DNA from: Candidatus Fermentibacterota bacterium
GTDB lineage: Bacteria; Fermentibacterota; Fermentibacteria; Fermentibacterales; JCC-6
NCBI GenBank assembly: GCA_963845085.1
Contig: CAWJQI010000004.1
Span: forward strand, 192,001-256,000
DNA length: 64,000 nucleotides
Reading direction: 5' to 3'
Part shown: one piece after another, positions 2,418-63,490 of the stretch
How positions within the stretch are numbered: position 1 is the first letter of the stretch
How the letters are laid out: every line of letters begins with the position of its first letter
Program-made: the position numbers and the translations under genes
Notes under the pieces: model-generated
What the model saw: the letters and a program-made list of their open reading frames with translations, nothing else
What the model was told of the DNA's origin: nothing
Database searches by the model: none

Positions 2418-4200
2418 TCAGAAGGTCTGCCCGATGGCAAAGTAGAACCTCCCCCTCTTGAAGCCGTCGCGCCATGTCGGTGCAAACCCGTAATCGAACC
2501 TGACGCGGGCTGAACGGGGTGCTGATCCTTAATCCAAGCCCTGTTCCAAGCCCTGCATCGGCTGTGGAAACTTCATCCACATCGTTCCAGATGCCCCCGG
2601 AATCGAGGAAGGCGGTGATGCCAAGGAATCTCCAAACCTTGAACCTGGCTTCGATGTTGCCAAGCAGCATGGTGTTCCCGCCCAATGGATTGCCATCATC
2701 GTCAACCGGTCCCATGGCATTGTAGGCGTAGCCCCTGACGGTGCTCGGACCGCCGAGGTAGAACCTGTCCGTGGGGGGGATCGAAACTGAACCGCTGTAG
2801 CCTTGAACTGTCCCGACCGCTCCCCTTGCTGCGAGGACCAGGTTTTCGCCGAAAGGGATGAAGAACCTGGCTTCGGTCTCCACCCTGTAAAAATCAAGAC
2901 CGCCGAGAAGGCCGCCCGAAACCTTTCCGCCCACCATCAGCCAGCGGCCCCGGGCTGGATCAAGCACCGGCGCCCTGGTATCGTTCACGACCGATGCGCT
3001 GAGGCTGCCGGTTGTGGTCCAGTCCTGGATGATCACCGTGTCCTCGCTGGTTGTCATGAAGCGGATCCTGTCGATGGCGTATCCGAAAGCGAAACGGACA
3101 TCCCGGGCCAGAAGCCGCGAGAAGCTGATCCCTGAACCGTAGCTTCGCTCCTCCTGGAAACTCCTCTGCAGGTACGTGTAGCTTCCGGTCAGCTTGCCGG
3201 TCCACCTCGAGGAGAGAAACCATGGCTCCTCGTAGGAAAGGGATGGCTCGACAAGGTCACCTTCCTGGCCGCTTGCAAAGTAGTGGGTCCAGGTGGATCC
3301 AATCGTCAGCCGCTGGTTGTTTCCCCAGATGTTCGGGTGCTTCCAGTATCCGCCCCAGAAAACGGCCGACGGGGATATGTAGCCGGTGCCCAGGTCGACA
3401 GTGTGATAGGGCTTTTCATGGACAACGACCTCAATGTCCATCACCGCGTCATCCTCGAGGGGGTGGTACCTGTAGCGGACATCGTTGAAAAGCCTCAGCG
3501 TGTAAATCCTTGCAAGGGATTCCCTCAGAATGTCCATGTTCAGCGAGTCTCCGGGTTGGAGGCTTATCTCCCTTGTCACGACAACCTGCCTGACCGATTC
3601 AAGACCGGAGACACTGACATTGCCAAGCACGAAACGGGGTCCTTCGGTGATCATGCACTGAAGTGTCCGGGTCGCTGGAATCGAGTCCGATCCGGAAGCG
3701 TCAAAGTCCATCAGCACAAAAGCGGCATCGGCTCTTACTCTTCCCCTGCTGCTGTAGACCGACCTGATGGACCGTCTGAATTCAAGGGTATCAAGAGGTG
3801 TGATGGGCTCGCCCGGCAGCAGGCCAAGAAGACCTCTGAGCTCGCTCTCATCAAAAAGGGTTGCGCCCGAGATCACCACGTCGCCGAGGAGGGATCTTCG
3901 CCCGGATTGGATCGATATTCCAACGGCTTGTGTGCCGGAGTCCCAGGCCGGCCAGGAGACTTCCACTAAAGCATCGAGGTAGCCGTGGTTTCTGAGGTTT
4001 GACAGCACCCCGTTGCCCACAAGAACCCTTGATAGCCCGTAGACGGATGCTCCGACCTCAAGGCCGGTGCCCGACAGGAGAGTACCCTCGTCCAGAGGCG
4101 GATTGCCCGTGAAGTACACCGAATCTATACTCGGCCCCAGGGAAGCCGACGCAACAGCCAGCAGTCCCCAGCAAAGAACAGGTGAGATCCATGAATACAT
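2418..4200 (-). CDS. Omp85 family (TamA/BamA-like) outer membrane protein; +1 frameshift near 2505-2511
   Basis: Signal peptide, POTRA-like repeats, barrel motif RFYLGGPSTVRGY. The C-terminus VRFDYG...FYFAIGQTF* is in a shifted frame ending at 2418. Confidence 0.85.
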
Positions 4201-5552
4201 ACCCTAAAACTAACACCTTCCCGCGGCACTTGGCGAGTGCGGGATCAAGACCCGTAGTGCTTCTTGTCGGCGGCACCGATCCGAGCGGTGGAGCGGGTCT
4301 GTTCGCCGACGCCAGGGCGGTGGCGGCAATGGGAGGCCACGGGTGTTTTGCCCTCACTGCGGTAACGGTCCAGGATTCGGGAAGGGTCCACTCCTGGAGC
4401 CGGGTGGATCCCGGGCTGCTCAGGGCCCAGTTGAACGCCGTATGCAACGATGGTACGCCCGACGGTGTTAAAACGGGCATGTTGGGAAGCCCCGAAGCGG
4501 TCGAGATTGTTTCGGAGATCTACAGGTCAGCCGTTCAGCCCGCTCCCCTGGTCGTCGATCCTGTGCTCGCGGCCGGCAGTGGCGACAGTCTCGCAAGCGG
4601 AGACCTTTCCGAGTGCATTCTGAGAACCCTCGTCCCGATCGCCTCACTGCTGACACCTAATCTCGATGAGGCCGAAGCCCTCACTAAAAGGTCGGTGAGA
4701 ACTATCCGGGAGATGGAGGAAGCAGGCAGGGCCCTTCTTGAAGCAGGTTCGGCAGCGGTGCTGGTAAAGGGCGGTCATCTCGATGGTGCACCCTCCGACG
4801 TCCTCGTGACGGAAAACGGAGTCAGGATCTTCACGGGTGAAAGAATAATCCCCGGCAAGGTTCATGGAACGGGATGCACCCTCGCGTCGGCGTGTGCTGC
4901 GCTCATGGCTTCCGGCTACACTGCCGAAACTGCCGTGGAAAAGGCTCTTTCCTACCTCCGCGGAGCGATCAGGGACGGCTTCCGAAGAAACAACGGCTTT
5001 TTGATCGGTCACTTTCCCGGGATCGGCCCGGGGCCCTGCCCAGGGAACACTACATCCTTCTATGCCCCGCCCAGGTTCTGCCACGTCTGCGGTGGTTCGC
5101 TGGTGGGCGTTTCCGGGCACATGGCGTGTTCGGGATGCGGGCTTGTCTACTACAGGAACCCGCTTCCGGCAGTCATGGTGATCGTCAGTGACAAGGAAGG
5201 CAGGCTCCTGCTGGTCAGAAGGACCTTCGCTCCGGCCAGGGGCGAATTATGCTTTCCCGGCGGATTCATGGAGATTGGAGAAACCCCGGTGGAATGCGCG
5301 CGCCGTGAGCTTTTCGAGGAAACCGGTCTTTCCGCGGAATCCATGGAACTGGCCGGATCTGACTCAGACACCACTGATTACGGTGCTGTGGCTCTCTACA
5401 TCTTCCGCACGCAGGGTTATTCCGGCACACCGGTTCCCGGCGACGACGCCGCAGAGATTCTGTGGCTGCATCCGGCCGACATACCGCCGCTCGCCTTCGC
5501 CGCCCATAACCGCGCCCTCATCGGCACTCTCAGGGGGGACGGACTAAGATAA
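4191..5552 (+). CDS. thiD: Hydroxymethylpyrimidine/phosphomethylpyrimidine kinase fused to zinc-ribbon Nudix hydrolase
   Basis: GTDPSGGAG, DPV and HGTGCT motifs, then CxxC..CxxC and Nudix box GGFMEIGETPVECARRELFEETGL. Start uncertain (4191 or TTG 4230). Confidence 0.85.
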   Translation: MNTYPKTNTFPRHLASAGSRPVVLLVGGTDPSGGAGLFADARAVAAMGGHGCFALTAVTVQDSGRVHSWSRVDPGLLRAQLNAVCNDGTPDGVKTGMLGSPEAVEIVSEIYRSAVQPAPLVVDPVLAAGSGDSLASGDLSECILRTLVPIASLLTPNLDEAEALTKRSVRTIREMEEAGRALLEAGSAAVLVKGGHLDGAPSDVLVTENGVRIFTGERIIPGKVHGTGCTLASACAALMASGYTAETAVEKALSYLRGAIRDGFRRNNGFLIGHFPGIGPGPCPGNTTSFYAPPRFCHVCGGSLVGVSGHMACSGCGLVYYRNPLPAVMVIVSDKEGRLLLVRRTFAPARGELCFPGGFMEIGETPVECARRELFEETGLSAESMELAGSDSDTTDYGAVALYIFRTQGYSGTPVPGDDAAEILWLHPADIPPLAFAAHNRALIGTLRGDGLR

Positions 5553-5628
5553 ATTAGTTTATCAGTATTGCGAAAATTGCACTGCATTCTTCAATACTGA
5601 TAAACTAATTTATCTTAGTCCGTCCCCC
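5534..5628. repeat. Perfect 37-bp inverted repeat with 21-nt spacer (REPIN/MITE-like element, copy 1)
   Basis: GGGGGACGGACTAAGATAAATTAGTTTATCAGTATTG at 5534-5570; exact reverse complement at 5592-5628. Confidence 0.95.
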
Positions 5629-6552
5629 AAGCTCTTCGAGGGTGCGGGTGATGGAGGGGGCGTCGTGGGTGCCGTAGACCCTCACATCACGGACCTTGGC
5701 GAGAAGACCCTGAAGGACCGTTCCGGGGCCGACCTCGACAAAGGTGTCGAAGCCGTTCTCGATCATCAGCTGAATCGAGGCGGCCCACAGGACCGGGGAT
5801 GTCACCTGCCTTGAAAGGAGCTCACGGGCCCTGTCGCCGCTGGTGATGTAACCGGCTGTGACATTGGCCACGACGGGAATGCCCGGGTCGTAAAAAGCCG
5901 CTTCCTTCAGTGCCTTCTTGAGATCCCTGGCGGCGTCCTCCATCAGGGGGCTGTGCCATGCGCCGGACACCTGCAGGGGAATGACGCGCTTCGCCCCCAG
6001 CTCGCGGCAGATCTCTCCCGCCTTCTCGAGAGGCTCACTCGCCCCCGAGATCACGACCTGTCCGGGAGAATTCATGTTGGCCACACCCACCGGTCCCATC
6101 TCGGATGCCTGTTCAACGGCCTTGCTGACACTTTCGAGATCAAGACCCAGCACTGCAAGCATGCCTCCGGGGTGGATATCGGCACAGCGCTGCATGAGCT
6201 CTCCGCGAAGCCTCGTGAGCTTGACGGCCGTATCGGGAAGCAGCACGCCGGCAGCCACCAGGGCTGAGTATTCACCCAGGCTGTGCCCGGCTGCGCCCTC
6301 GGGTCGAATCCCCGCAACCTGAAGAACCTTCAGCGTGGCGATGCTCACCATCGTGATCGCCGGCTGGGCGTAGTCGGTGCGAGTGAGGGTCTCGCCGGGA
6401 CCGTCGCTCATCACCTGCAGCAGGTCGTGTACTCCGCTGAGGGTGTAGGTTCTCTCAAGAAACTCCCTTGATTCGGGAAAATCCATGAGGTGCTTCTGCA
6501 TCCCCACCTGCTGTGATGCCTGACCGGGAAAGAGAAATGCCAGTCTTCCCAT
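5605..6552 (-). CDS. fabD: Malonyl-CoA:ACP transacylase
   Basis: LAFLFPGQ, GHSLGEY, AWHSPLM and EVGPG motifs. Confidence 0.95.
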   Translation of the reverse strand: MGRLAFLFPGQASQQVGMQKHLMDFPESREFLERTYTLSGVHDLLQVMSDGPGETLTRTDYAQPAITMVSIATLKVLQVAGIRPEGAAGHSLGEYSALVAAGVLLPDTAVKLTRLRGELMQRCADIHPGGMLAVLGLDLESVSKAVEQASEMGPVGVANMNSPGQVVISGASEPLEKAGEICRELGAKRVIPLQVSGAWHSPLMEDAARDLKKALKEAAFYDPGIPVVANVTAGYITSGDRARELLSRQVTSPVLWAASIQLMIENGFDTFVEVGPGTVLQGLLAKVRDVRVYGTHDAPSITRTLEELGGRTKIN

Positions 6553-6557
6553 GGCCG

Positions 6558-9021
6558 TCACTCCGTTTCCTGTAATCCACTTTCCATATATGTGATCAAC
6601 TGTTTGGGTCTTGGCCATCCGGGGTCGGCTTCCACCGCCATCCCCGCAAGTTGCGCCGCCTCGGCGCTTGAACCGCCATCATAAAGCACCTGAGCTGCAG
6701 ATGTCAGTGCAACCGATCTCCAGCGCGCCGCCATCACACCCCGCACCCCGTCGAGCAGTGCGAAAGCCTCGGGAATAGAACCGTTCCAGTATACCATCTG
6801 CGCCTGCCGCAGGGGATCGGGGGATAATGATGAAAATGAGAACAGAAGTGCCACATTGGGCATGATCGTGGCCTGCGGATCGTCGGGCGCCCTGCGCCGG
6901 ATGAACTGGCAGCCCGCCCGGTGATCGGTGTTGGGTGACGGGCCGGCCTCGAGCGCGCCGCACATCCCCTGATTGTCGAGCACTGGTTCCAGATAAACTT
7001 GCTCATTCGCGTCGAACGCCACCGAGGCGAGCTGTTCCCGGGCACCCTGATCACCGAACATGGCGCCGATCGACAGCGACAGGGAATCGGCACTCCCGAT
7101 CAGGATCACGTGGCGCCCCCCTGCAAGATGGGCGGCTGAGTACGGGAATACTCCGGCCCAGGTGGCAAGTATCCTGTGGAAATCACTCGGGGGGAGCTGA
7201 TGAAGAGGAACCCACTGGGCGGCGACTCCGCCGGGCGCAAGCCTGCGTAAAACAAGCGAATAGAACTCACGGGTGTAAAGCAGCCAGCTCTCACTGGAAC
7301 CGGGATGCGTGGCGTCGCACACGACAAGGTCGTAACAGTCCGGTGTTCCAAGAAGGTAGTTCCTTCCGTCATCGCCCACGAGATGAAAGCGCGGATCGGA
7401 ATCGGGCCGGCGGTTCTCCCCCTCGAAGAATGGAAGCGCGCCGACAACACCGGGACATATCTCGACACAGACGAGGCTTTCCAGCGGGTGCGTGAGAAGG
7501 GCTCCCGACGTGATCCCGCCGCCGAGGGCCACTGAAAGAGCGGTTTTGGCCTCCGGATTGTAGCCCCAGGGCAGATGCCCGAGAAGGTAGAACGCCTCGA
7601 GTGAGGACTGGTCAATGGGCACTTCCTCGACACCGTTGATCCGCAGGCTTCGGTGCCCGTCCCAGTCGCGGCCGAACACGGAAACGGTGGCGGTTCTGTC
7701 CTCGCTGAAATAGACAAGGCTCATGCCGTCGGGAGGCGTAGAACCCGGCGGATCAGCAGTCAGGACGAGCATGTACACAGCTGCCGCACCGGCAAGCGCC
7801 ATCGGAACCCATGCGGGACGTCGGGTCCTGATGAAGCAGGCAAGCCCCACCCCGATGCTTCCGAATGCGAGCAGCAATGCGGTGTGCGTGACACCGAGCC
7901 AGGAGAAAGAAAACCCTCGTAGCGAGAACGGGCCCGAATGCCGCCCCGATGCAGTTCGCAAGGCTGAGCACCCCGACGTCCTCGCCCAGGCGGTCCTTGC
8001 GGGCGCTGGCGGCGAGCATGACAGGAAATGTCGTGCCCATGAGGAACGTGGACGGCAGCATGTAGAGGAACGAAGCCAGGAAGCCCCCCGCCGTTCGTGC
8101 TGCCCATCCGCTTCCTCCGGCAATCGCGGCGACGCCTGCGAAACTGCGCAGAGCCGAAAGGGGAAGCACCGAGGCAACAGCGAGCAGCACCTGGATTATT
8201 CCGAAGAGAAGAAGCGGTTGCCCGGTCCTCGATGCAATCCTCCTGCCGCTCAGACCGCCAAGCCCAATTCCGAGAAGAACCATCATGCCCATCGTGGTGA
8301 ACGCATAGGTGCTGTTCCCAAGCACGAAAGTGAGCTGACGGCTCCATACCGTCTCATATCCTAGTGCTAAACAACCACTTGCCGAATAAACCGCGAGGTG
8401 GAACGCACCGGGTGGAAGCTGGGCAACAGGCTCGGACGACCCTGTAACCCGGTCCCGCAGGAAGAGCAGCCCGAGAATGAGGAGCAATGAACCTGCCGCC
8501 AGAGTTGCAGCAGTTCCGACCGCCTCGAGAAGGATGAAGCCCGACAAAAAGCCGCCCAGGGCCGATCCGAGGCTGTTCAGACCGTATAGCTTCGACGCAA
8601 GTGAGCACCCGTCCGGGCCCTCGACGAGCCTTGATGCCGCAGGAACGATCCCCCCGGCGCAAAATGTGGCCGGGAAAACGAGAAGAACAGCGGAAAGGAA
8701 CCTGGCCGGGATCTGTAGACCCGAGGCGTAGAAATAAGGGTAGAGGCCCTCGAGGAAGGGCTCCAGCACCAGAGGAAGCAGAGAGGCGAGCGCCGTTCCG
8801 ACGGCAGCCGTCTGCAGGACCCTGAGAGGTCTTGGGGAACGCTGTGCCAGCTTCCCGAACGCCCTTCCGCCCAGGCCGAGCCCAAGCATGAACGCGCTGA
8901 GGACAACTGCCGTGGAATCGACGCTTCCGCCTGCAAGCAACAACAGCATCCGATTCCAGGTCACCTGCGCGATCAGAACCCCCGCGCCGCCGAGAACCGC
9001 AAAGACCCACAATCCCTGCAA
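6558..9021 (-). CDS. Membrane domain fused to spermidine synthase-like domain; +1 frameshift near 7906-7913
   Basis: Two hydrophobic repeats (LYGLNSLGSALG; GNSTYAFTT), then a SAM-fold domain (ALGGGIT, VEI, DDGRNYL, LYTREFY) split across two frames. Confidence 0.8.
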
Positions 9022-54819: not shown

Positions 54820-55299
54820 TCAGAACCCGGCGCCCACCCCGAGCGTGGTGATCCAGTCATGCCCGTCGTCATCGCCTCCGACGTGGCGGAACACACCCGC
54901 GTTGAGTCCCAGGACGAACAGGGATACGGACAGCTCGGGGCCGACATAGGTTTGCCCGGGTTCCACATCGCCGAGCGGATTGCCCCAGGTCCTGAGCACA
55001 GAAGCGGACAGTCCCAAGCTGTACAGAGGCATGAAGCGCATCTCACCGAACCGGTACCCCAGGTTGATCTTCCCCCCTCCGAACCCGGGTTCGAGCTGCA
55101 GGAATGGGCCGTGGTGAAAGGTTCCGCCCGCGGGAATGTTTGCCGCAAGCCCAACCACCCATCCGAGCTTCAGGGGTGTGGAATACCGGGTCATGGCGCA
55201 GGGGAAGAGGTACATTCTGCGGGGGGATGGAGTAACGCCCGGCGGGAGTGCACCCATCGCGAGGGCACAAATCAACATGATCGCGGATACTGCTTTCAT
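54820..55299 (-). CDS. Small exported protein, probable beta-barrel
   Basis: Signal peptide, amphipathic strands, ends TLGVGAGF. Confidence 0.55.
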   Translation of the reverse strand: MKAVSAIMLICALAMGALPPGVTPSPRRMYLFPCAMTRYSTPLKLGWVVGLAANIPAGGTFHHGPFLQLEPGFGGGKINLGYRFGEMRFMPLYSLGLSASVLRTWGNPLGDVEPGQTYVGPELSVSLFVLGLNAGVFRHVGGDDDGHDWITTLGVGAGF

Positions 55300-55456
55300 T
55301 GCTTTCCATCCGTTAGGTTGCCGCACGGGTGGTACCGGACGGAACTGCGAAGTATTCCGTGCGGGCATCTCCGGCAGGGGTTGCTCTTTTCCGACGAATT
55401 CTGCAGGTATGCTTTCAAATATGGTGTGATGAGACTTTTCCAATCAAGGAGCGAAT

Positions 55457-57913
55457 ATGTTTCTTCTTTCCCTTTTACTGGCTTCCCAGTTGGTTCCAAC
55501 GGGTTATTCCGGCCTTCCAAGGGCGATGGTCCCAAGGTCTCTTCTTGAGGACCGGCCTGCGGCCTTCTCCTCAGTTACATCACTGAACGGCGGCAGGGCC
55601 GGGAAGGTCCTGGTCGTGGTTGCAGACTACATTGCCGAGCCGCTCTCCTTCCAGCTCGAGCGCTTTGTGAGCGACATCGCCGCAGACGGGTGGGATGTGG
55701 AGATGACTGTGATGGAGGGAGGGAATGCCGGTGACTTGAGAGCGATGCTCCAGAACGTTTCAGGGCTGGAAGGTGCAATACTCGTGGGCTTCCTCCCGTG
55801 TGCCTGGTTCGAGATGGATTACTGGGCGCCGGAGGAGTTTCCCTGCGAGCTTTACTTCATGGACCTTGACGGTGCCTGGATGGATTACGATTCGGACGGC
55901 ATTTTTGATTCTCACGCCGGTTCCATTGCACCCGAGATATGGCTGGGACGCATCGACGCATCGGCAATGAGCTACGGTTCCGAAACAACGATGCTCATCG
56001 AGTATTTCGACAAGAACCACCTCTACCGTACCGGCTCCATGGCCCTTGACTCCCGGGCACTTTCGTTCATCGACGACGACTGGAGCTCGTCGTACTCTTC
56101 CTGCGGTCTTGAGGCTGTGTACGGCTCATCCGGCGTCACCGTGGTCAACTCGCCGGCCGCCACCACCGCACCGGCATATCTGTCCGGCCTGGGAGAGGGC
56201 TACGAGTTCGTGCATCTCATGAGCCACAGTTCTCCCTGGGGGCACACCTTCCTCGTTCCCGGAGGGCACGGCGGATCGGTCATGGCGCCTGAGATCAGTG
56301 TCGCCGATCCGCATACAGCGTTCTACCAGCTCTTCAGCTGTTCAAATGCGAGGTGGGTCGAATCAGGCTGCCTTGGCAACTGGTACCTGTTCGGAACCTC
56401 ATACGGGCTTCTCGTGTGCGGTGCGGCAAAGACCGGTTCCATGCTCGATTTTGAAGAGTTCTACACACCGCTCGGTTCGGGGGACACCTTCGGGGAAGCT
56501 TTTCATGCCTGGTGGCTCTTCGAGGCACAGGGCGGTTTCTCCGGCATGGAAAGAGCATGGTTCTACGGAAATGCCCTCCTTGGAGACCCCACACTACGGC
56601 CCATGGGAGTCGGTCGCACGTTCGCGGGGCTGCCCGGTTCCGGTGAGGTTGGCAGCTACGACCGCATATCAACCAGCCAGTACTCCGACTGCCACCCGGC
56701 TGCGGTCGCCGGGTCCGGGGAGATCTCAACCGTAGCATGGCTCACCGGTGAGAACGGCCGGCTGGACATAGCGGCATGCATCGTCGACGGCGACAGCTGG
56801 AGCCAGGTTTACTACGTGGACAGCGACGAATACTGGGATGCGGGTGTCACGGCCTGCTTCGACGGCGACGGTGTGCCCTGGCTGGCCTGGAGCGACTTCG
56901 AATACGAAACCTACAGCTACAGGATAAAGACCGCCAACGGTGAATCGTTCGAGAATGTTGAGATCCGTGTGCCGCAGGATGGTTACCAGGTCTTTCCGCA
57001 GCTGGCCTGGGACGGATCGAGGATGTGGCTGGCATGGCTGAACTGGAAGGCGTCCGGGGGTGTCGTGATGGCCATGACACTCGATGGGTCGTTCCCGCCC
57101 CAGGCGATCAGCTCACCCGGGGCGTTCTGCGCGCCACCTTCACTCATTGCCGAAGGAGGCGAGGTTTACGCTGTCTGGGTCGAACTCGACCAGACCGGAA
57201 GCCGGGTGATGGGCAGCATCTATTCAGGTGTCTCGTTCAGCAGTCCCGTACAGATGTCTTCGGGAACGGTCTGTCACAACCCCGTCCTCGGTTCCGCCGA
57301 TGGCCAGGTGCTTCTTGTCTGGCAGGACGACACCTCGGGTTCTTCAATCCGCGCCAGGGTCCTGCCCGGGGAGGAAACGGTTGTTGCATCGCCGCAGGAT
57401 CACGCCTTCCGCCCTTCGATCGGGCAGCTTCCGGGCGGCGGGTTTGCCGTCTACTGGCAGGAGGGAAACGGCGCTTCCGCAGTGATAATGGCGTGTGCGG
57501 TAGCGGGTGGCGAACCTTTCCAGACTGTGTCCCCGCAGGGTCCGGCCTGGTTTCCCGCCGCTGCGGGTGAAAGGCTGTTCTGGGCGGGCAATCAGGGGGA
57601 GGGCTGGGACATCTACACAACGATCCCCGGGTGGACCGGCATCGAGCAGCCCGACGTAATCGAGTCTGTCCCCATGATCGCGGGCAATCCGGTGCGAACC
57701 GGGCTTGCACTGACAATACCGTCGGGCGGGGGGGTATTCTCCGGCCGCATTCAGGTGTTCGACCTGGCCGGAAGGCTCGTGATTGCCCGTAACACGGTCA
57801 TCCGCCCCGGCGAGACAGTGACGGTGGATTGCGAAAGTCTTCGCACGGGTGTCTACATGGTCAACACTGATGACGGAAGGCTTTGCGGAAGGTTCACGGT
57901 GATACGGGACTGA
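55457..57913 (+). CDS. C25 (gingipain-like) peptidase with beta-rich repeats and T9SS-type/FlgD-like C-terminal domain
   Basis: PEIWLGRI, HLMSHS, FSCSN, LLGDP; tail VFDLAGRLV..GVYMV. Confidence 0.72.
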   Translation: MFLLSLLLASQLVPTGYSGLPRAMVPRSLLEDRPAAFSSVTSLNGGRAGKVLVVVADYIAEPLSFQLERFVSDIAADGWDVEMTVMEGGNAGDLRAMLQNVSGLEGAILVGFLPCAWFEMDYWAPEEFPCELYFMDLDGAWMDYDSDGIFDSHAGSIAPEIWLGRIDASAMSYGSETTMLIEYFDKNHLYRTGSMALDSRALSFIDDDWSSSYSSCGLEAVYGSSGVTVVNSPAATTAPAYLSGLGEGYEFVHLMSHSSPWGHTFLVPGGHGGSVMAPEISVADPHTAFYQLFSCSNARWVESGCLGNWYLFGTSYGLLVCGAAKTGSMLDFEEFYTPLGSGDTFGEAFHAWWLFEAQGGFSGMERAWFYGNALLGDPTLRPMGVGRTFAGLPGSGEVGSYDRISTSQYSDCHPAAVAGSGEISTVAWLTGENGRLDIAACIVDGDSWSQVYYVDSDEYWDAGVTACFDGDGVPWLAWSDFEYETYSYRIKTANGESFENVEIRVPQDGYQVFPQLAWDGSRMWLAWLNWKASGGVVMAMTLDGSFPPQAISSPGAFCAPPSLIAEGGEVYAVWVELDQTGSRVMGSIYSGVSFSSPVQMSSGTVCHNPVLGSADGQVLLVWQDDTSGSSIRARVLPGEETVVASPQDHAFRPSIGQLPGGGFAVYWQEGNGASAVIMACAVAGGEPFQTVSPQGPAWFPAAAGERLFWAGNQGEGWDIYTTIPGWTGIEQPDVIESVPMIAGNPVRTGLALTIPSGGGVFSGRIQVFDLAGRLVIARNTVIRPGETVTVDCESLRTGVYMVNTDDGRLCGRFTVIRD

Positions 57914-59557: not shown

Positions 59558-59875
59558 ATGCGTGCATTAATTGTACTTGTAATCGCTGCTTCGGTTGTTT
59601 GGGCATCGCTTGACATCCCGGGAGCAAGCTCTGCCGATTCTGCATACGGCCCGCCTTCGCTGGTCAAACCCGGAAGAGACAACCGAGTCTTCTTTGATCT
59701 CCCCAGTTCAATAACCCATCTTCGGGAATCCATTCTGAACACGAGCATCCGCATTTCAAGCGGACCAACACCCCAGAAACCCCTCAGGTGCGCCGACTCC
59801 TTCTCCAACCAGCGCTTCACCGCCTTCCCTCTCGAACCCGTCCAAGCCCCCACCGTCACCCTCTACACCTTCTAG
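59558..59875 (+). CDS. Small secreted hypothetical protein (105 aa)
   Basis: Signal peptide MRALIVLVIAASVVWA, upstream promoter, C-ending codon bias in the 3' part. Confidence 0.55.
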   Translation: MRALIVLVIAASVVWASLDIPGASSADSAYGPPSLVKPGRDNRVFFDLPSSITHLRESILNTSIRISSGPTPQKPLRCADSFSNQRFTAFPLEPVQAPTVTLYTF

Positions 59876-60143
59876 GGGACGGACTAAGGTTACTTAGATT
59901 GTCGGCCGATTGAGCTGGCAATCTTTTACCAAACAAAGCATTTGGTTACTCTGATGATCTATCTCAATCCATTCATCGAACCTATCGCGGTCCATTAATC
60001 CAATCCATCCTATTCATCTATCCTGCTGTCCTGCATAAATCTCCGTATTGAATAAGAAAGCACCCGACAGAACGGATGATCCATGTCATCGTCCTGCCGG
60101 GTGCCTGTAACAAACAACCTAAGTAATCTTAGTCCGTCCCCTA
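59873..60143. mobile_element. 271-bp element bounded by 30-bp inverted repeats (REPIN/MITE-like, copy 2)
   Basis: TAGGGGACGGACTAAGGTTACTTAGATTGT (59873-59902) matches the reverse complement of 60114-60143 at 28/30; AT-rich interior; same core as 5534-5628. Mobility is inferred. Confidence 0.65.
60051..60104 (-). terminator. Putative intrinsic terminator of the ECF/S9 operon
   Basis: Long stem 60060-60104 whose two A.C mismatches are G-U pairs on the minus strand, followed by TTTCTTATT. Confidence 0.55.
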
Positions 60144-62162
60144 TCGCAGTTCGACGGCGGCGGTGGAGTCGGGGACGAAGAGCTCGCACTCGATGCCGGG
60201 GCCGGGAACGGAGAGATAGAGGAACTCCTCGACTCGGCCGGCGAAATCAAGCCGGTTCTCCTCGTGAACAAATCCGTGACCCTCGTTGTTGTAGAGAACG
60301 TAGACCACTGATGTCCCGATGGCCCTGAGGGCTTCAACCATCTGGTCGCTTTCAGCCTGTACGACCCTCGGGTCGTTCGCGCCCTGGGCGATGAAGATGG
60401 GCATGGTGATGTTCTCCACATGGCTGAGAGGAGAGCGGTCTTCGAGCATTTCCCTGTCATCCGCGTCTTCCGGGTTCCCCACCCTGATGTTCATGAGGGT
60501 AAGCATGGGTTTCCAGTAGGGTGGAACCGTTTCCATGAAGGTTATGAGGTTTGACGGGCCGAAGAAGTCAACCACTGCGCAGTAGAGCTCGGGTGTGAAC
60601 ACCGCACCTGCAAGGGCCGCATAGCCTCCGTATGACCCGCCGAGGATGACGACCCGTTCAGGGTCGGCGATGCCCTGGTCAATCGCCCAGAGGGCGCCGT
60701 CAGTGATGTCGTCCTGCATGGCGCCGCCCCATTCCTTGTTCGCGGCGTTCAGGAATGCCTTTCCAAATCCAGTGCTGCCCCGGAAATTCACCTGAAGAAC
60801 GGCGAAGCCGCGGTCGGCGAACATCTGTGTGAAGGGGTCGTAACCGTAGTAATCCCTGTACCAGGGGCCTCCGTGCACCATCAGGATGGTCGGCCAGGGT
60901 CCAGCGCCATACCTGTCCGGATCAGGAGTGGTGACATAGGACGGAAGTACGAAGCCGTCGCGGGAAGGGATCTCCACACCTTCCATGGGGCGGAGCGTGT
61001 AGTCCTCGAGAGCGGGGATCGCGGTGAAAAGCTCACGGGCTTCGCCGGCCGTGCGGTCGTAAACGCAGTAGACGGCGGGGTTCTCGATCGTACTGTAGGC
61101 AACGAGCCATGTCGAATCGGCGTTGTCTCTGGAGACGATGCTGAAGTCGCCGTCACGGAACTCCTGCAGGTACGCGATGTCAGCCTCGATGGCCGGATCA
61201 AGGACCCGGAGGGTCCGCCTGAGGTAGAAAAATGCGGCCAGCCTGGGCTCTCCGGTGAACGGGTCGAAACCCACGCCCGCAATGTCGGATGAGGAATCGC
61301 TTGTGACAAGTGTTTCGGTTCCAGACGCCAGGTCGAAACGGTACAGCGCCGTCTTGTCCCTCCCGAGATTGGAGCGGATGAAAAGCCCTGTGCCGTCTTC
61401 GGTGAACCGCTCGGGGAACCACTCCTCCTCGCTGGAGAATGATTTGAGAAGTTCCCAGGGGGAGTCGACAGCCGTTCGATGGTGGATCGAGATGAAGCCT
61501 GTCTCGGGGTGTATCGTGAACTGGAGCCTGATTTCGAGCTCACGGTCGGCCATGTACCCGAGAACCATTTCACCCTCGGGGGTGGTTCCCGGGTTGTCCA
61601 TCACCATGGTGAGTTCGCCTGTGTCGAGATCACAGGCGTACACGTCGAAGAACATCCTGTTGTCCTGGTTCATCTCTATCAGGACCATGCCGGGGAAGTC
61701 GGGGTTGGAATCGGAAACGTAGGCCTTTACCCCGGGAAACGGGGTCAGGTCGAGAACCTCGCCGGTCGCCACGGTGATCCTGTAAACGTGGGTATTCTCC
61801 TCGCCCGCCTCGTCCTGCATGTAGAGAATGTGAATCCCGTCTTCCGCCCACTGGAAGTCCATCACACCCCTGTCATCGTCGAACGTGAGCTGCCTTGGGT
61901 TCTCCCCTGTTACGTCCATGAGCCAGAGGTTGAGAACGCCGTCCGCCGGCGCGATGTAGGCAATGGTGCTTCCGTCCGGGGAAAGCTGGGGTCCCACGCG
62001 TTCGGGGTTTCCGAAAAGAACGTCCCTCGGGATAAGGCTTTCAGCCCCCGGACTGGCAACATGACCGGGTTCGGGAAGAGAAGCTCCCGCAGAGGGGGAA
62101 GGCTCGCTTCCGCACCCGGACACAAGCAGGGAAAGAACAGCAACGACCGAAATTCTGAACAT
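60141..62162 (-). CDS. S9 family peptidase (acylaminoacyl/dipeptidyl peptidase), lipoprotein
   Basis: Lipobox VSGC, VHGGP, GGSYGG, NDPRV, EGHGF. Confidence 0.93.
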   Translation of the reverse strand: MFRISVVAVLSLLVSGCGSEPSPSAGASLPEPGHVASPGAESLIPRDVLFGNPERVGPQLSPDGSTIAYIAPADGVLNLWLMDVTGENPRQLTFDDDRGVMDFQWAEDGIHILYMQDEAGEENTHVYRITVATGEVLDLTPFPGVKAYVSDSNPDFPGMVLIEMNQDNRMFFDVYACDLDTGELTMVMDNPGTTPEGEMVLGYMADRELEIRLQFTIHPETGFISIHHRTAVDSPWELLKSFSSEEEWFPERFTEDGTGLFIRSNLGRDKTALYRFDLASGTETLVTSDSSSDIAGVGFDPFTGEPRLAAFFYLRRTLRVLDPAIEADIAYLQEFRDGDFSIVSRDNADSTWLVAYSTIENPAVYCVYDRTAGEARELFTAIPALEDYTLRPMEGVEIPSRDGFVLPSYVTTPDPDRYGAGPWPTILMVHGGPWYRDYYGYDPFTQMFADRGFAVLQVNFRGSTGFGKAFLNAANKEWGGAMQDDITDGALWAIDQGIADPERVVILGGSYGGYAALAGAVFTPELYCAVVDFFGPSNLITFMETVPPYWKPMLTLMNIRVGNPEDADDREMLEDRSPLSHVENITMPIFIAQGANDPRVVQAESDQMVEALRAIGTSVVYVLYNNEGHGFVHEENRLDFAGRVEEFLYLSVPGPGIECELFVPDSTAAVELR

Positions 62163-62179
62163 CAATGACCTCCGGAGAA

Positions 62180-62554
62180 TCACCTTGCCCGTGAGAACGC
62201 AATTGTATAGATGGTGTAGACAAGCCCGCCCATCACCGCCAGGGCTGCGGCGGCCCGTTCGAAGCTCAGGGATGCCAAAGAGGCGAGAAGACTTTCAAAC
62301 GGCCTCATCGAGGCGAGATCGAGGATCCAGGAAAGCCTGTCCAAGTTGGATGCTGCAAAAAGGGCGACGAGTGCGGCGGCGACTATCACGACAAACACCT
62401 TGTAGTATGGGAACGCAGGTCGGCTCAGCGCCTGCGCCTTCATGGCAATCATCCTGGCCATTCCGCCCGGGACGGCCTCCGGCGATACGGATGAGGTGAG
62501 CAGAAAGTCCACGATCTGCTCAAGTCCTGCATTCCCGTTACGCGAGGAGCTCAT
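62180..62554 (-). CDS. Putative anti-sigma factor (2 TM)
   Basis: Overlaps the 3' end of the ECF sigma gene; two hydrophobic segments. Confidence 0.55.
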   Translation of the reverse strand: MSSSRNGNAGLEQIVDFLLTSSVSPEAVPGGMARMIAMKAQALSRPAFPYYKVFVVIVAAALVALFAASNLDRLSWILDLASMRPFESLLASLASLSFERAAAALAVMGGLVYTIYTIAFSRAR

Positions 62555-63089
62555 CTTCTCTTCCTTTCAGCAGGGCGCACAATCTCTCCCTGGCCCTGTG
62601 CAGCCCGACCCTGACAGACCCGGGTGACATTCCCAGAATTATAGCCACTTCGTCGCTCGAAAGATCCCGATGGTAGGACAGCGTGAGAAGCTGACGGTCC
62701 CTCATCGAGAGCAGCGCCATTGCCTCCTCGAGAATGCGTCTTTTCTCGTCGAAGCCCGGGGGCATGGTGGGGTTTGCGTTTTCGAGAAGCATCTCCTCCC
62801 CGCCCGCTTCCATTCTCCGGTTCCGTTTTTCCATCTCGTCGAGGCAGATCCGCCTCGTAATCGAAACAAGCCAGCCCGGAAAGGCTTCCGGATCCCTCAG
62901 GCTCCGGATCTTCTGCCAGACCCTGGTGAAGGTTTCCTGACACATGTCTTCGGCCAGGTGCGCGTCGCCAGTCATCCGGAACGCCAACGAGTGCACAAGC
63001 CCGCAGTACTCCTTCACCAGGGCCTCGAAGGCCGGGGAGTCCCCGTCCCTGGCCAGAGCGACAAGCCCGAGGGTATGCTCCCGAGTCAC
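62538..63089 (-). CDS. ECF sigma factor
   Basis: AEDMCQETF, FPGWL, EVAIILG..GSVRVGLHRAR. Confidence 0.93.
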   Translation of the reverse strand: MTREHTLGLVALARDGDSPAFEALVKEYCGLVHSLAFRMTGDAHLAEDMCQETFTRVWQKIRSLRDPEAFPGWLVSITRRICLDEMEKRNRRMEAGGEEMLLENANPTMPPGFDEKRRILEEAMALLSMRDRQLLTLSYHRDLSSDEVAIILGMSPGSVRVGLHRARERLCALLKGREDELLA

Positions 63090-63490
63090 TTGTGGTCTCC
63101 ACCGTCATCCTTCTGGACAAAGAGAGCGATAACGATGTTGGCGATCCCGATGAAGCCGAGGATGAGTGCTGCGAGGATGAACCCCCTGACCTGGCCCATG
63201 ACAAGGGCTCCCAGAACGAATGCAATGGCGATGCTGAGAAGAATGATACCGCTGCTGAGGCTCTTCTTGCGGGGGTTCACGGGGACGGTGCTCTCGGTAC
63301 TCCCGAGGGACTGCACGAGCTTGTCAACCTGTTCGGGGGAGAGGTTTCCCTCGAGGGCCCTTTTCACTGTTTCGTACTTCGCAACCTTGGTGCGGTGCGA
63401 GTAGTAGGTCGCAAGAATAATCGCCAGCACAGGCCCGCCAACTCCGAGAACAATGCCGAAGATCGGTATCATCAATGCCAGATCATCCAT
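63086..63490 (-). CDS. DUF6249-like membrane protein
   Basis: TM, ALEG linker, LSSGIILL, 2 more TM; upstream of an ECF sigma; AAGGAG RBS. Confidence 0.65.
   Translation of the reverse strand: MDDLALMIPIFGIVLGVGGPVLAIILATYYSHRTKVAKYETVKRALEGNLSPEQVDKLVQSLGSTESTVPVNPRKKSLSSGIILLSIAIAFVLGALVMGQVRGFILAALILGFIGIANIVIALFVQKDDGGDHK

Follow-up and report, generated by a model that had tools for sequence, protein, structure and literature searches.

An AT-rich hairpin between convergent genes of a Candidatus Fermentibacterota bacterium as a putative TIR pair of a single-copy TIRYT system

The closest described systems are the TIRtrons and their enzymes, the TIRYTs, which were named by Di Nocera, De Gregorio and Rocco in 2013 (PMC3733652). 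As described in the text of that paper, a Y1/HUH gene with a C-terminal Bac_DnaA_C-like domain is flanked by long TIRs, not by GTAG REPs; the TIRs have a G-rich outer motif and form a modest dispersed family of single and dimeric copies, some of which overlap genes. The motif GGGGWSAS is reported there for some TIRs, and others are without it. TIRYTs were tentatively equated with TnpA-Y1 subclass 2.1 (2.1.2) by Quentin et al. in 2018 (PMC6006769), and this subclass was reported to lack a REP-like partner. In the literature, the terms TIRYT and TIRtron were found only in PMC3733652 and PMC6006769 (with preprint), and no experimental work on subclass 2.1 was found.

REPIN-RAYT systems (groups 2 and 3) pair inverted doublets of a short repeat with a HUH enzyme that is inherited vertically and present in one copy (PMC5581495, PMC8266576), and the reason why such single-copy enzymes persist, as well as the way in which their repeats stay uniform, has been presented as an open question (PMC5581495). 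In Pseudomonas chlororaphis, mixed REPIN types were reported in 13 of 20 fully conserved spaces, and it was suggested that RAYTs modify or replace REPINs by "overwriting" (REPORTH preprint, 10.1101/2024.10.14.618302); the idea of overwriting at fixed sites is thus not new in itself. HUH/Y1 enzymes cut one strand, with the tyrosine holding the 5′ end until a 3′-OH resolves the intermediate, and for this family activity has been shown only on single-stranded DNA (PMC8266576). The IS200/IS605 elements (IS608, ISDra2) share the catalytic fold with the enzyme described below, as well as single-strand cleavage via a 5′-phosphotyrosine (PMC8266576); they are, however, multi-copy with asymmetric hairpin ends, whereas the TIRYT gene reported here is single-copy and confined to one locus.

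The locus under study lies in a window of 64,000 nt (the whole stretch of DNA that was analysed) on contig C4 of the source genome, G000, whose contigs are designated C1, C2 and so on; G001–G007 are its congeners. The features of the focal locus, in window coordinates, are as follows:

4182..5552, plus strand: ORF extent of a ThiD (phosphomethylpyrimidine kinase)-NUDIX fusion, the 3′ end of which enters the left arm
5534..5570, plus strand: focal left arm, an extra G followed by the head GGGGACGGAC at 5535–5544
5545–5553, 5554–5562 and 5563–5571, plus strand: boxes 1, 2 and 3 of the left arm
5571..5591, no strand: focal spacer, 21 nt, a shrunken remnant of the pair interior
5592..5628, minus strand: focal right arm, its head beginning at 5627
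5605..6618, minus strand: acyltransferase (FabD-type) gene, the 3′ end of which enters the right arm

Two 37-nt segments (5534–5570 and 5592–5628), 100% complementary and separated by 21 nt, constitute a perfect inverted repeat, which folds far better than its shuffles (z = −15) and has a GC content of 38% compared to 61% in the window. The flanking genes are convergent, and both run into the repeat: the TAA stop of the ThiD-NUDIX gene (5550–5552) lies inside the left arm, and the last codons and the TAG stop (5607–5605) of the FabD-type gene lie inside the right one. In two other genera, the FabD-type gene ends where the arm would start. The pair is 93 bp long here vs. 129–140 bp in four congeners, in which the interior carries a hairpin; by this comparison, the focal pair is a shortened form of a full pair.

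A second inverted pair is found in the window at 59873–59902/60114–60143. Its surroundings are as follows:

59558–59875: ORF of 105 aa, N-terminus hydrophobic, without an NCBIfam match
59875..59911, plus strand: second-pair left arm
59912..60104, no strand: second-pair interior, AT-rich
60105..60141, minus strand: second-pair right arm
60141–62183, minus strand: S9 peptidase gene

The first G of each of these arms is the last base of a TAG stop, that of the 105-aa ORF on the left and that of the S9 peptidase gene on the right, and the interior contains a terminator-like hairpin on the minus strand (60078–60061). An earlier note on this DNA had described a 37-bp perfect inverted repeat with a 21-nt spacer, AT-rich in a GC-rich window and placed between convergent genes, together with the second pair 59873–60143, and all of these observations were confirmed. 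The Rfam search of the window that it proposed gave no match. Elsewhere in the window, the ORFs at 591–1757, 54859–55548 and 62180–63225 are without a Pfam match.

The core GGGGACGGACTAAG occurs four times in the window when up to two mismatches are allowed (0.52 expected). Across the 2.45-Mb genome, a count of the 14-mer gave 22 exact copies and 26 copies when one mismatch was allowed (mean for shuffled 14-mers, 0.045), and a weight-matrix scan of G000 returned the same 26 arms, with none further above the threshold. Seven inverted pairs and 12 single arms make up 19 loci, as anticipated by the earlier claim of a dispersed, gene-less repeat family with inverted doublets. Pair lengths cluster near 130–150 bp, many pairs enclose a separate terminator-like hairpin, and within G000 the interiors are unlike one another between sites. 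Based on crude gene calls, the head end of the arm adjoins a gene boundary: 17 of the 26 arms fall in the range −23 to +6 nt relative to a stop codon, which is inside the arm in 13 of the 17, and 5 of the 26 lie within 31 nt of a gene start. By the same crude calls, spacers between convergent genes have a GC content of 0.41 with arms vs. 0.58 without. Genes with a T9SS tail number 91 in the genome, and about five of them, counted by eye, are located beside the 19 arm loci. The heads of the start-facing arms (G000:C5:230739, C5:911752, C4:701525, C4:340913 and C1:354096) adjoin a TATATT-like hexamer or a purine-rich, ribosome-binding-like run; judged by eye, these arms appear to sit tight against promoter or translation signals.

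The sole Y1_Tnp match of the genome is bracketed by one arm pair (C2:22951–24001, 1051 bp), so the search for a repeat-flanked RAYT/IS200-like transposase, suggested earlier, led to a single Y1/HUH gene between two arms:

G000:C2:23054–23914, outside the window: TIRYT gene, protein P0001, 286 aa, with arms at C2:22951 and C2:24001

P0001 matches PF01797 above the cut-off, and its HUH motif (HIH at 60–62, with H60 and H62) and Y119 are invariant in 24 aligned homologues. The structure model (mean pLDDT 86.6) has its best fold match in E. coli TnpA-REP (4ER8), followed by IS200/IS608 transposases, and includes a helical domain at 208–273. An alignment profile of the C-terminal region matches DnaA domain IV structures (E-value, 5e-7); the Bac_DnaA_C-like Pfam match of the single protein is weak and below the cut-off (E-value, 0.005). 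The score against NF047646, the REP-associated tyrosine transposase equivalog, is 57.9 bits and does not reach the cut-off of 80. The nearest named relative of P0001 comes from Ca. Fermentibacteraceae (58% identity).

In six genomes of the genus, the TIRtron occupies one and the same locus in an unchanged orientation, and the TIRYT core, with pN of 0.14 vs. pS of 0.80, is by this measure under purifying selection. At synonymous sites, this core has diverged more than the FabD-type gene when identical genome pairs are compared (0.80 vs. 0.58–0.61 and 0.54 vs. 0.39). TIRs are present at 73 of 87 complete homologous loci; among 64 non-redundant TIRtrons, 52 begin with GGGAC and one fits GGGGWSAS. 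No full-length relative was found on plasmids (five records with partial matches) or on viral contigs (one short match). Other genera of the order (G009, G010, G019, G023 and more) have up to 10 diverse homologous genes per genome, and the loci fetched from them mostly have TIRs of their own; mobility of the class may be greater in those genera than within the genus of G000.

Analysis of the arms revealed a conserved 10-nt head (consensus as given above, with GGGGACG), which is followed by 9-bp direct boxes with the units T(A/T)AGATA.., TTAG(T/A)TT.. and TG..GTAA. Self-similarity peaks at period 9 (z = 11) in 34 arms of 17 non-redundant TIRtrons from the order and one outgroup, and at period 8 (z = 10) in 45 more distant TIRtrons. 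Beyond the boxes, many arms have a spaced palindrome at fixed offsets (nt 34–43 and 49–58), the halves of which were found in 13 and 12 of 32 arms in G001 and in 3 and 7 of 26 in G000 (shuffles, <0.1). This puts the full end at about 60 bp, in keeping with the length of most pairs. An inner palindrome (CTAA..TTAG) is present in 20 of the 26 arms of G000, and in 6/32, 8/30, 8/31, 6/22 and 0/18 arms of five congeners; from this distribution, it is a by-product of the TAAG variant that is dominant in G000 only. Two single arms fold no better than shuffles (z of −1.2 and −0.6), and no GTAG/GTGG guide was found in the arm consensus. Thus, the REP-like foot-plus-palindrome layout proposed earlier was not borne out: the arm is a head with direct boxes, and the inner palindrome is not conserved across congeners.

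The IHF consensus known from BIME-1/RIB-like repeats is WATCAANNNNTTR. The spaced palindrome, YAA-N4-WTG-N5-CAW-N4-WTR, fits the outer part of this consensus, columns 44–48 being without WAT, and the genome encodes two HU/IHF genes. An assignment to IHF was not adopted. The full motif occurs only three times in a whole-genome scan, none of them on C4, and hence is absent at the focal pair. A supposed hypervariable zone beside the arm was also dropped: part of it is the conserved spaced palindrome, and the orthologous identity in close species amounts to 0.71–0.75. The reverse complement of the head starts with CGTC (window 5535–5541, and family-wide), which is the tag of the "CGTC repeats", repeats without a dedicated transposase (PMC3733652); this may be chance.

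Based on domain layout and flanks, the family is a TIRtron/TIRYT system: a Y1/HUH gene, long non-GTAG TIRs, the C-terminal domain, and dispersed single and dimeric TIRs were all found. The head found here, GGGGACGG, differs from the published GGGGWSAS (PMC3733652); since other TIRs are also without that motif, it marks a sub-type and not the class. Of the earlier notion of an unrecognised non-autonomous family mobilised in trans, the tie to a HUH/Y1 gene elsewhere, present in single copy, is retained, whereas the kind is a known one, TIRtrons having been named in 2013. REP/REPIN membership is contradicted by the absence of a GT[AG]G guide from the arm consensus, the unfolded state of the two arms tested singly, the unconserved palindrome and the NF047646 score below the cut-off. 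In contrast to REPIN-RAYT systems, there is here no GTAG guide, the single arm is without a stem-loop, the enzyme has an extra HTH domain, and the copies number about 26 and not hundreds; moreover, almost every site is a fixed position shared between species, and the replacement can be followed at nucleotide resolution, with the head kept and the boxes changed. The texts of PMC3733652 and PMC6006769 contain no description of 8–9-bp direct boxes, fixed orthologous sites, inversions or junction duplications. No published account was found of the head-plus-direct-box anatomy, of inversion and conversion at TIR pairs across species, or of the junction duplications, although figures or supplements of these papers may hold direct boxes.

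A strong hairpin between convergent 3′ ends, belonging to a family whose arms often follow stop codons, could also be a plain bidirectional terminator or an RNA-stabilising hairpin. We consider this highly improbable as an account of the repeat: 12 arms are single and the two singles tested do not fold, several arms face gene starts, many pairs have a terminator-like hairpin of their own in the interior, copies of this arm also flank the transposase gene, and Rfam has no match. The focal pair may nevertheless act as a terminator secondarily.

Comparison with other genomes revealed that the exact core is present in four of seven congeners and in none of 33 other genomes searched. At 25 of the 26 G000 arms, an intact arm occupies the orthologous site in at least one of five congeners, and the 26th has relics. 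Conversely, 22 of 30 arms in G004 and 16 of 22 in G002 are at sites with a G000 arm (flanks about 69–87% identical), and most of the remaining G004 and G002 sites have decayed arms in G000. In G006, the TIRYT gene is gone from an intact contig and the arms are decayed; G007 is without a TIRYT orthologue and without intact arms. At the thiD-fabD site, five of the genus's eight genomes have the arm, and the remaining three have it in decayed form. Only two sites look like true gains, both in the clade of G001, G004 and G005: C5:600108, which is empty in G000, G002, G003 and G007, and the filled form of which duplicates an overlap of about 35 nt between convergent genes around the insert, and C4:167841, which is empty in G000 and G002. 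Three single arms that seemed to be new insertions private to G000 proved to be ancestral by congener comparison. From these comparisons, sites are seldom gained and often decay, and as a rule they persist. At G000:C4:387430–390200, G000 has about 2.6 kb extra compared to G002 and G005; four congeners keep an arm there, which G000 has lost. No long-range synteny breaks were found at the mapped arms (seven rows lack an inner match); arms as breakpoints of large rearrangements were rejected, the exceptions being local gene gain or loss and paralogue cases.

These observations bear on the reading of the family as a classical non-autonomous MITE- or REPIN-like element that copies itself to new sites in trans, its arms being alike since the copies are recent. 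The two apparent gains, the clustering of pair lengths near 130–150 bp and the multiple diverse homologous genes in other genera are in accord with it. It is set against by the near-complete sharing of G000 sites with congeners, by "empty" sites that are mostly decayed arms, and by the interiors, which differ between sites and thus argue against a master copy. No short target-site duplication common to the arms was found, and this, together with the differing interiors, also separates the family from MITEs of DDE-type IS elements. As the main process, such copying is largely refuted by the site comparisons, and we regard it as very unlikely. The spreading-element reading of the earlier note was not supported as the main process: the thiD-fabD site is occupied or decayed throughout the genus, and two apparent insertions are all that was seen. 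That note had set against its own reading a hairpin that is fixed at this locus and has no further copies in the genome; half of this was found, as the site is fixed but the copies are many.

The arms at these fixed sites have changed in concert. G003 has 39 matches to a box type of its own, T(A/C)AAC..(T/G)CAAC (control, 3; one of the matches is a contig-overlap duplicate), with arm variants including GGGGACGGAG and GGGGACGTAC. Arms of the G003 type occupy 22 of the 26 G000 sites, the focal site and the TIRtron included, and 19 of them lie within 7 nt of the same junction. As boxes of the G003 type are also found in a dead relic of G000 (C5:609337) and in a TIRtron of another genus (L069), the G000 type is probably derived, and it probably swept all live sites later; the branching order of G000 and G002 is not settled by the one-gene tree used.

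Partner arms of a pair have also changed together. Among G001, G004 and G005, changes at nt 11–36 affected both partner arms in 7 cases and one arm in 9 (non-partner combinations, 36/1063); beyond nt 36, the corresponding numbers are 2 and 17. Partner arms are, by these counts, homogenised to about nt 36 by conversion, and the focal repeat is accordingly perfect for exactly 37 nt. In G001, five arms at four loci carry an A>C change in box 2, which is absent from every exact-core arm of G004 and G005. Direct copying of haplotypes between distant loci is weakly supported: long haplotypes are closer than column shuffles in five of six genomes, G003 being the exception, and this comparison is confounded by shared hairpins.

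In addition, four of the seven short-pair sites have their interior in opposite orientations in different species (reverse/forward scores of 76/18, 53/26, 47/21 and 46/24). One of these is the second window pair, the interior of which is inverted in G004 relative to G001 (reverse 53, forward 26). Weak inversion calls were obtained at two more sites, the focal site scoring 24 vs. 16–21, and neither the short pair C1:153290 nor the TIRtron is inverted in any comparison. No more than seven sites, in related genomes, underlie the inversion and conversion counts. Genes, too, differ within these slots: one G003 pair surrounds an Omp28-like gene of 329 aa with a T9SS tail, which G000 does not have at that position, a second encloses a 569-aa gene where G000 keeps one arm, and a 91-bp G003 pair joins points that in G000 are 3.9 kb and two T9SS-tailed genes apart. 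Two G003 pairs are located exactly at contig breaks (G003:C24/C35 and G003:C17/C29), which could reflect assembly trouble at hairpins or mixed orientations within the population. In four DNA runs (Logan contigs), both window pairs had a depth of about 2–5, too shallow to show live inversion; no contig bridges a pair, and joints were not seen.

A further trace was found at the outer ends of the arms. An exact tandem duplication spans the outer junction at 34 of 245 arms beside homologous genes (genome and metagenome contigs, across phyla), compared to 0–1 duplications per 10 nt in distant flank bins; 15 of the 34 are without microhomology, and several arms have undergone repeated rounds. The outer boundary of the duplication lies mostly 6–11 nt outside the head and the inner one at 0 to +27, with 14 of the 34 compatible with a join just after GGGACG; no strong dinucleotide preference was found at the boundaries. 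Among non-arm GGGAC[GA] motifs taken as controls, duplications were seen at 1 of 2368 in G000 and at 0 of 901 in stretches of G004 and G005. The genus's own arms have duplications at 2 of 159, each with one mismatch; one is in G000, where a flank-plus-head unit is repeated at C1:153259–153296. An initial placement of the nick exactly after GGGGACG was weakened to a window by the full duplication list. The junction duplications are read as probable traces of nicking, fill-in and re-ligation, and they leave the nicked strand and bond unfixed.

Since the arms stand at common sites, yet their sequences have changed together and their interiors have flipped, the enzyme likely rewrites in place and does not spread. 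We therefore lean, with reserve, towards the reading that the hairpin is a TIR pair of the genome's single TIRYT, with old, fixed sites at which the enzyme would nick beside the head and rewrite the arms in place. The HTH/DnaA-IV-like C-terminal domain would bind the 8–9-bp boxes on double-stranded DNA, and the HUH core would nick one strand in or just outside the head. The junction duplications could result from fill-in and re-ligation of the displaced strand. If two nicked arms exchanged strands, this might give a four-way junction that migrates through identical boxes; its migration would produce conversion, that is, homogenised arms and a genome-wide box change, and its resolution on the other strands would leave the interior inverted. 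New sites would arise rarely. Against this reading, the co-variation that it predicts between the recognition helix and the boxes was not significant in 57 TIRtrons (r of about 0.15, below the permutation 95th percentile of 0.199); the top co-variation window of this set lies in the HUH core (74–82, r 0.255).

Inverted repeats 60–200 bp apart can be inverted and homogenised by host recombination or template switching without a dedicated enzyme. The arms could accordingly be domesticated binding sites, bound by the TIRYT for a host job such as chromosome organisation or gene-end control, with selection keeping the arms and driving the box change site by site, and with host recombination responsible for inversions and homogenisation. 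This explanation accommodates equally well the fixed sites, the vertical inheritance of a single-copy gene that is under purifying selection, and the decay of arms once the gene is lost; the arms adjoin stop codons or the starts of genes, the evidence for conversion between distant loci is weak, and RAYTs have been argued to behave like housekeeping genes (PMC5581495). It leaves unexplained, however, the duplications at 34 of 245 arms, many of them without microhomology, as well as the invariant catalytic residues, and it needs about five coordinated substitutions at each of 20–30 sites, some of which are inside protein-coding tails. We judge it unlikely, while taking it seriously as a competitor of rewriting in place by the enzyme.

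Rewriting in place may be extended to the class as a whole, as a tentative proposal about which we remain doubtful: TIRYTs would be HUH site-specific recombinases that use double-stranded head-plus-box sites, nick at the head and exchange the interior, so that a new variant would overwrite the resident boxes, flip the interiors and swap surface-protein genes in fixed slots. Invertons, shufflons and integron attC sites are served by tyrosine or serine recombinases encoded beside their own sites. The outcome is alike in such site-specific inversion systems, with inverted sites, a flipping interior and genes that come and go. In the present case, by contrast, the candidate enzyme is a HUH nuclease that would work in trans, and it is only in comparisons between species that flips are seen.

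The set of loci names a substrate (a head, two to three 8–9-bp boxes and a spaced palindrome) and a cut window reaching from about 11 nt outside the head to the inner edge of the head. The enzymes of G000 and G003, each with its own boxes, are a natural specificity pair, and three read-outs are on offer, namely conversion, inversion and junction duplication; "overwriting", so far only suggested for REPINs, thereby becomes directly testable. If the enzyme acts on double-stranded sites with exchangeable boxes, it would be a candidate tool. If the proposal for the class is true, the chemistry of recombination involved would be one that has not been described for the IS200/RAYT superfamily, and it would give a reason why single-copy "transposases" persist.
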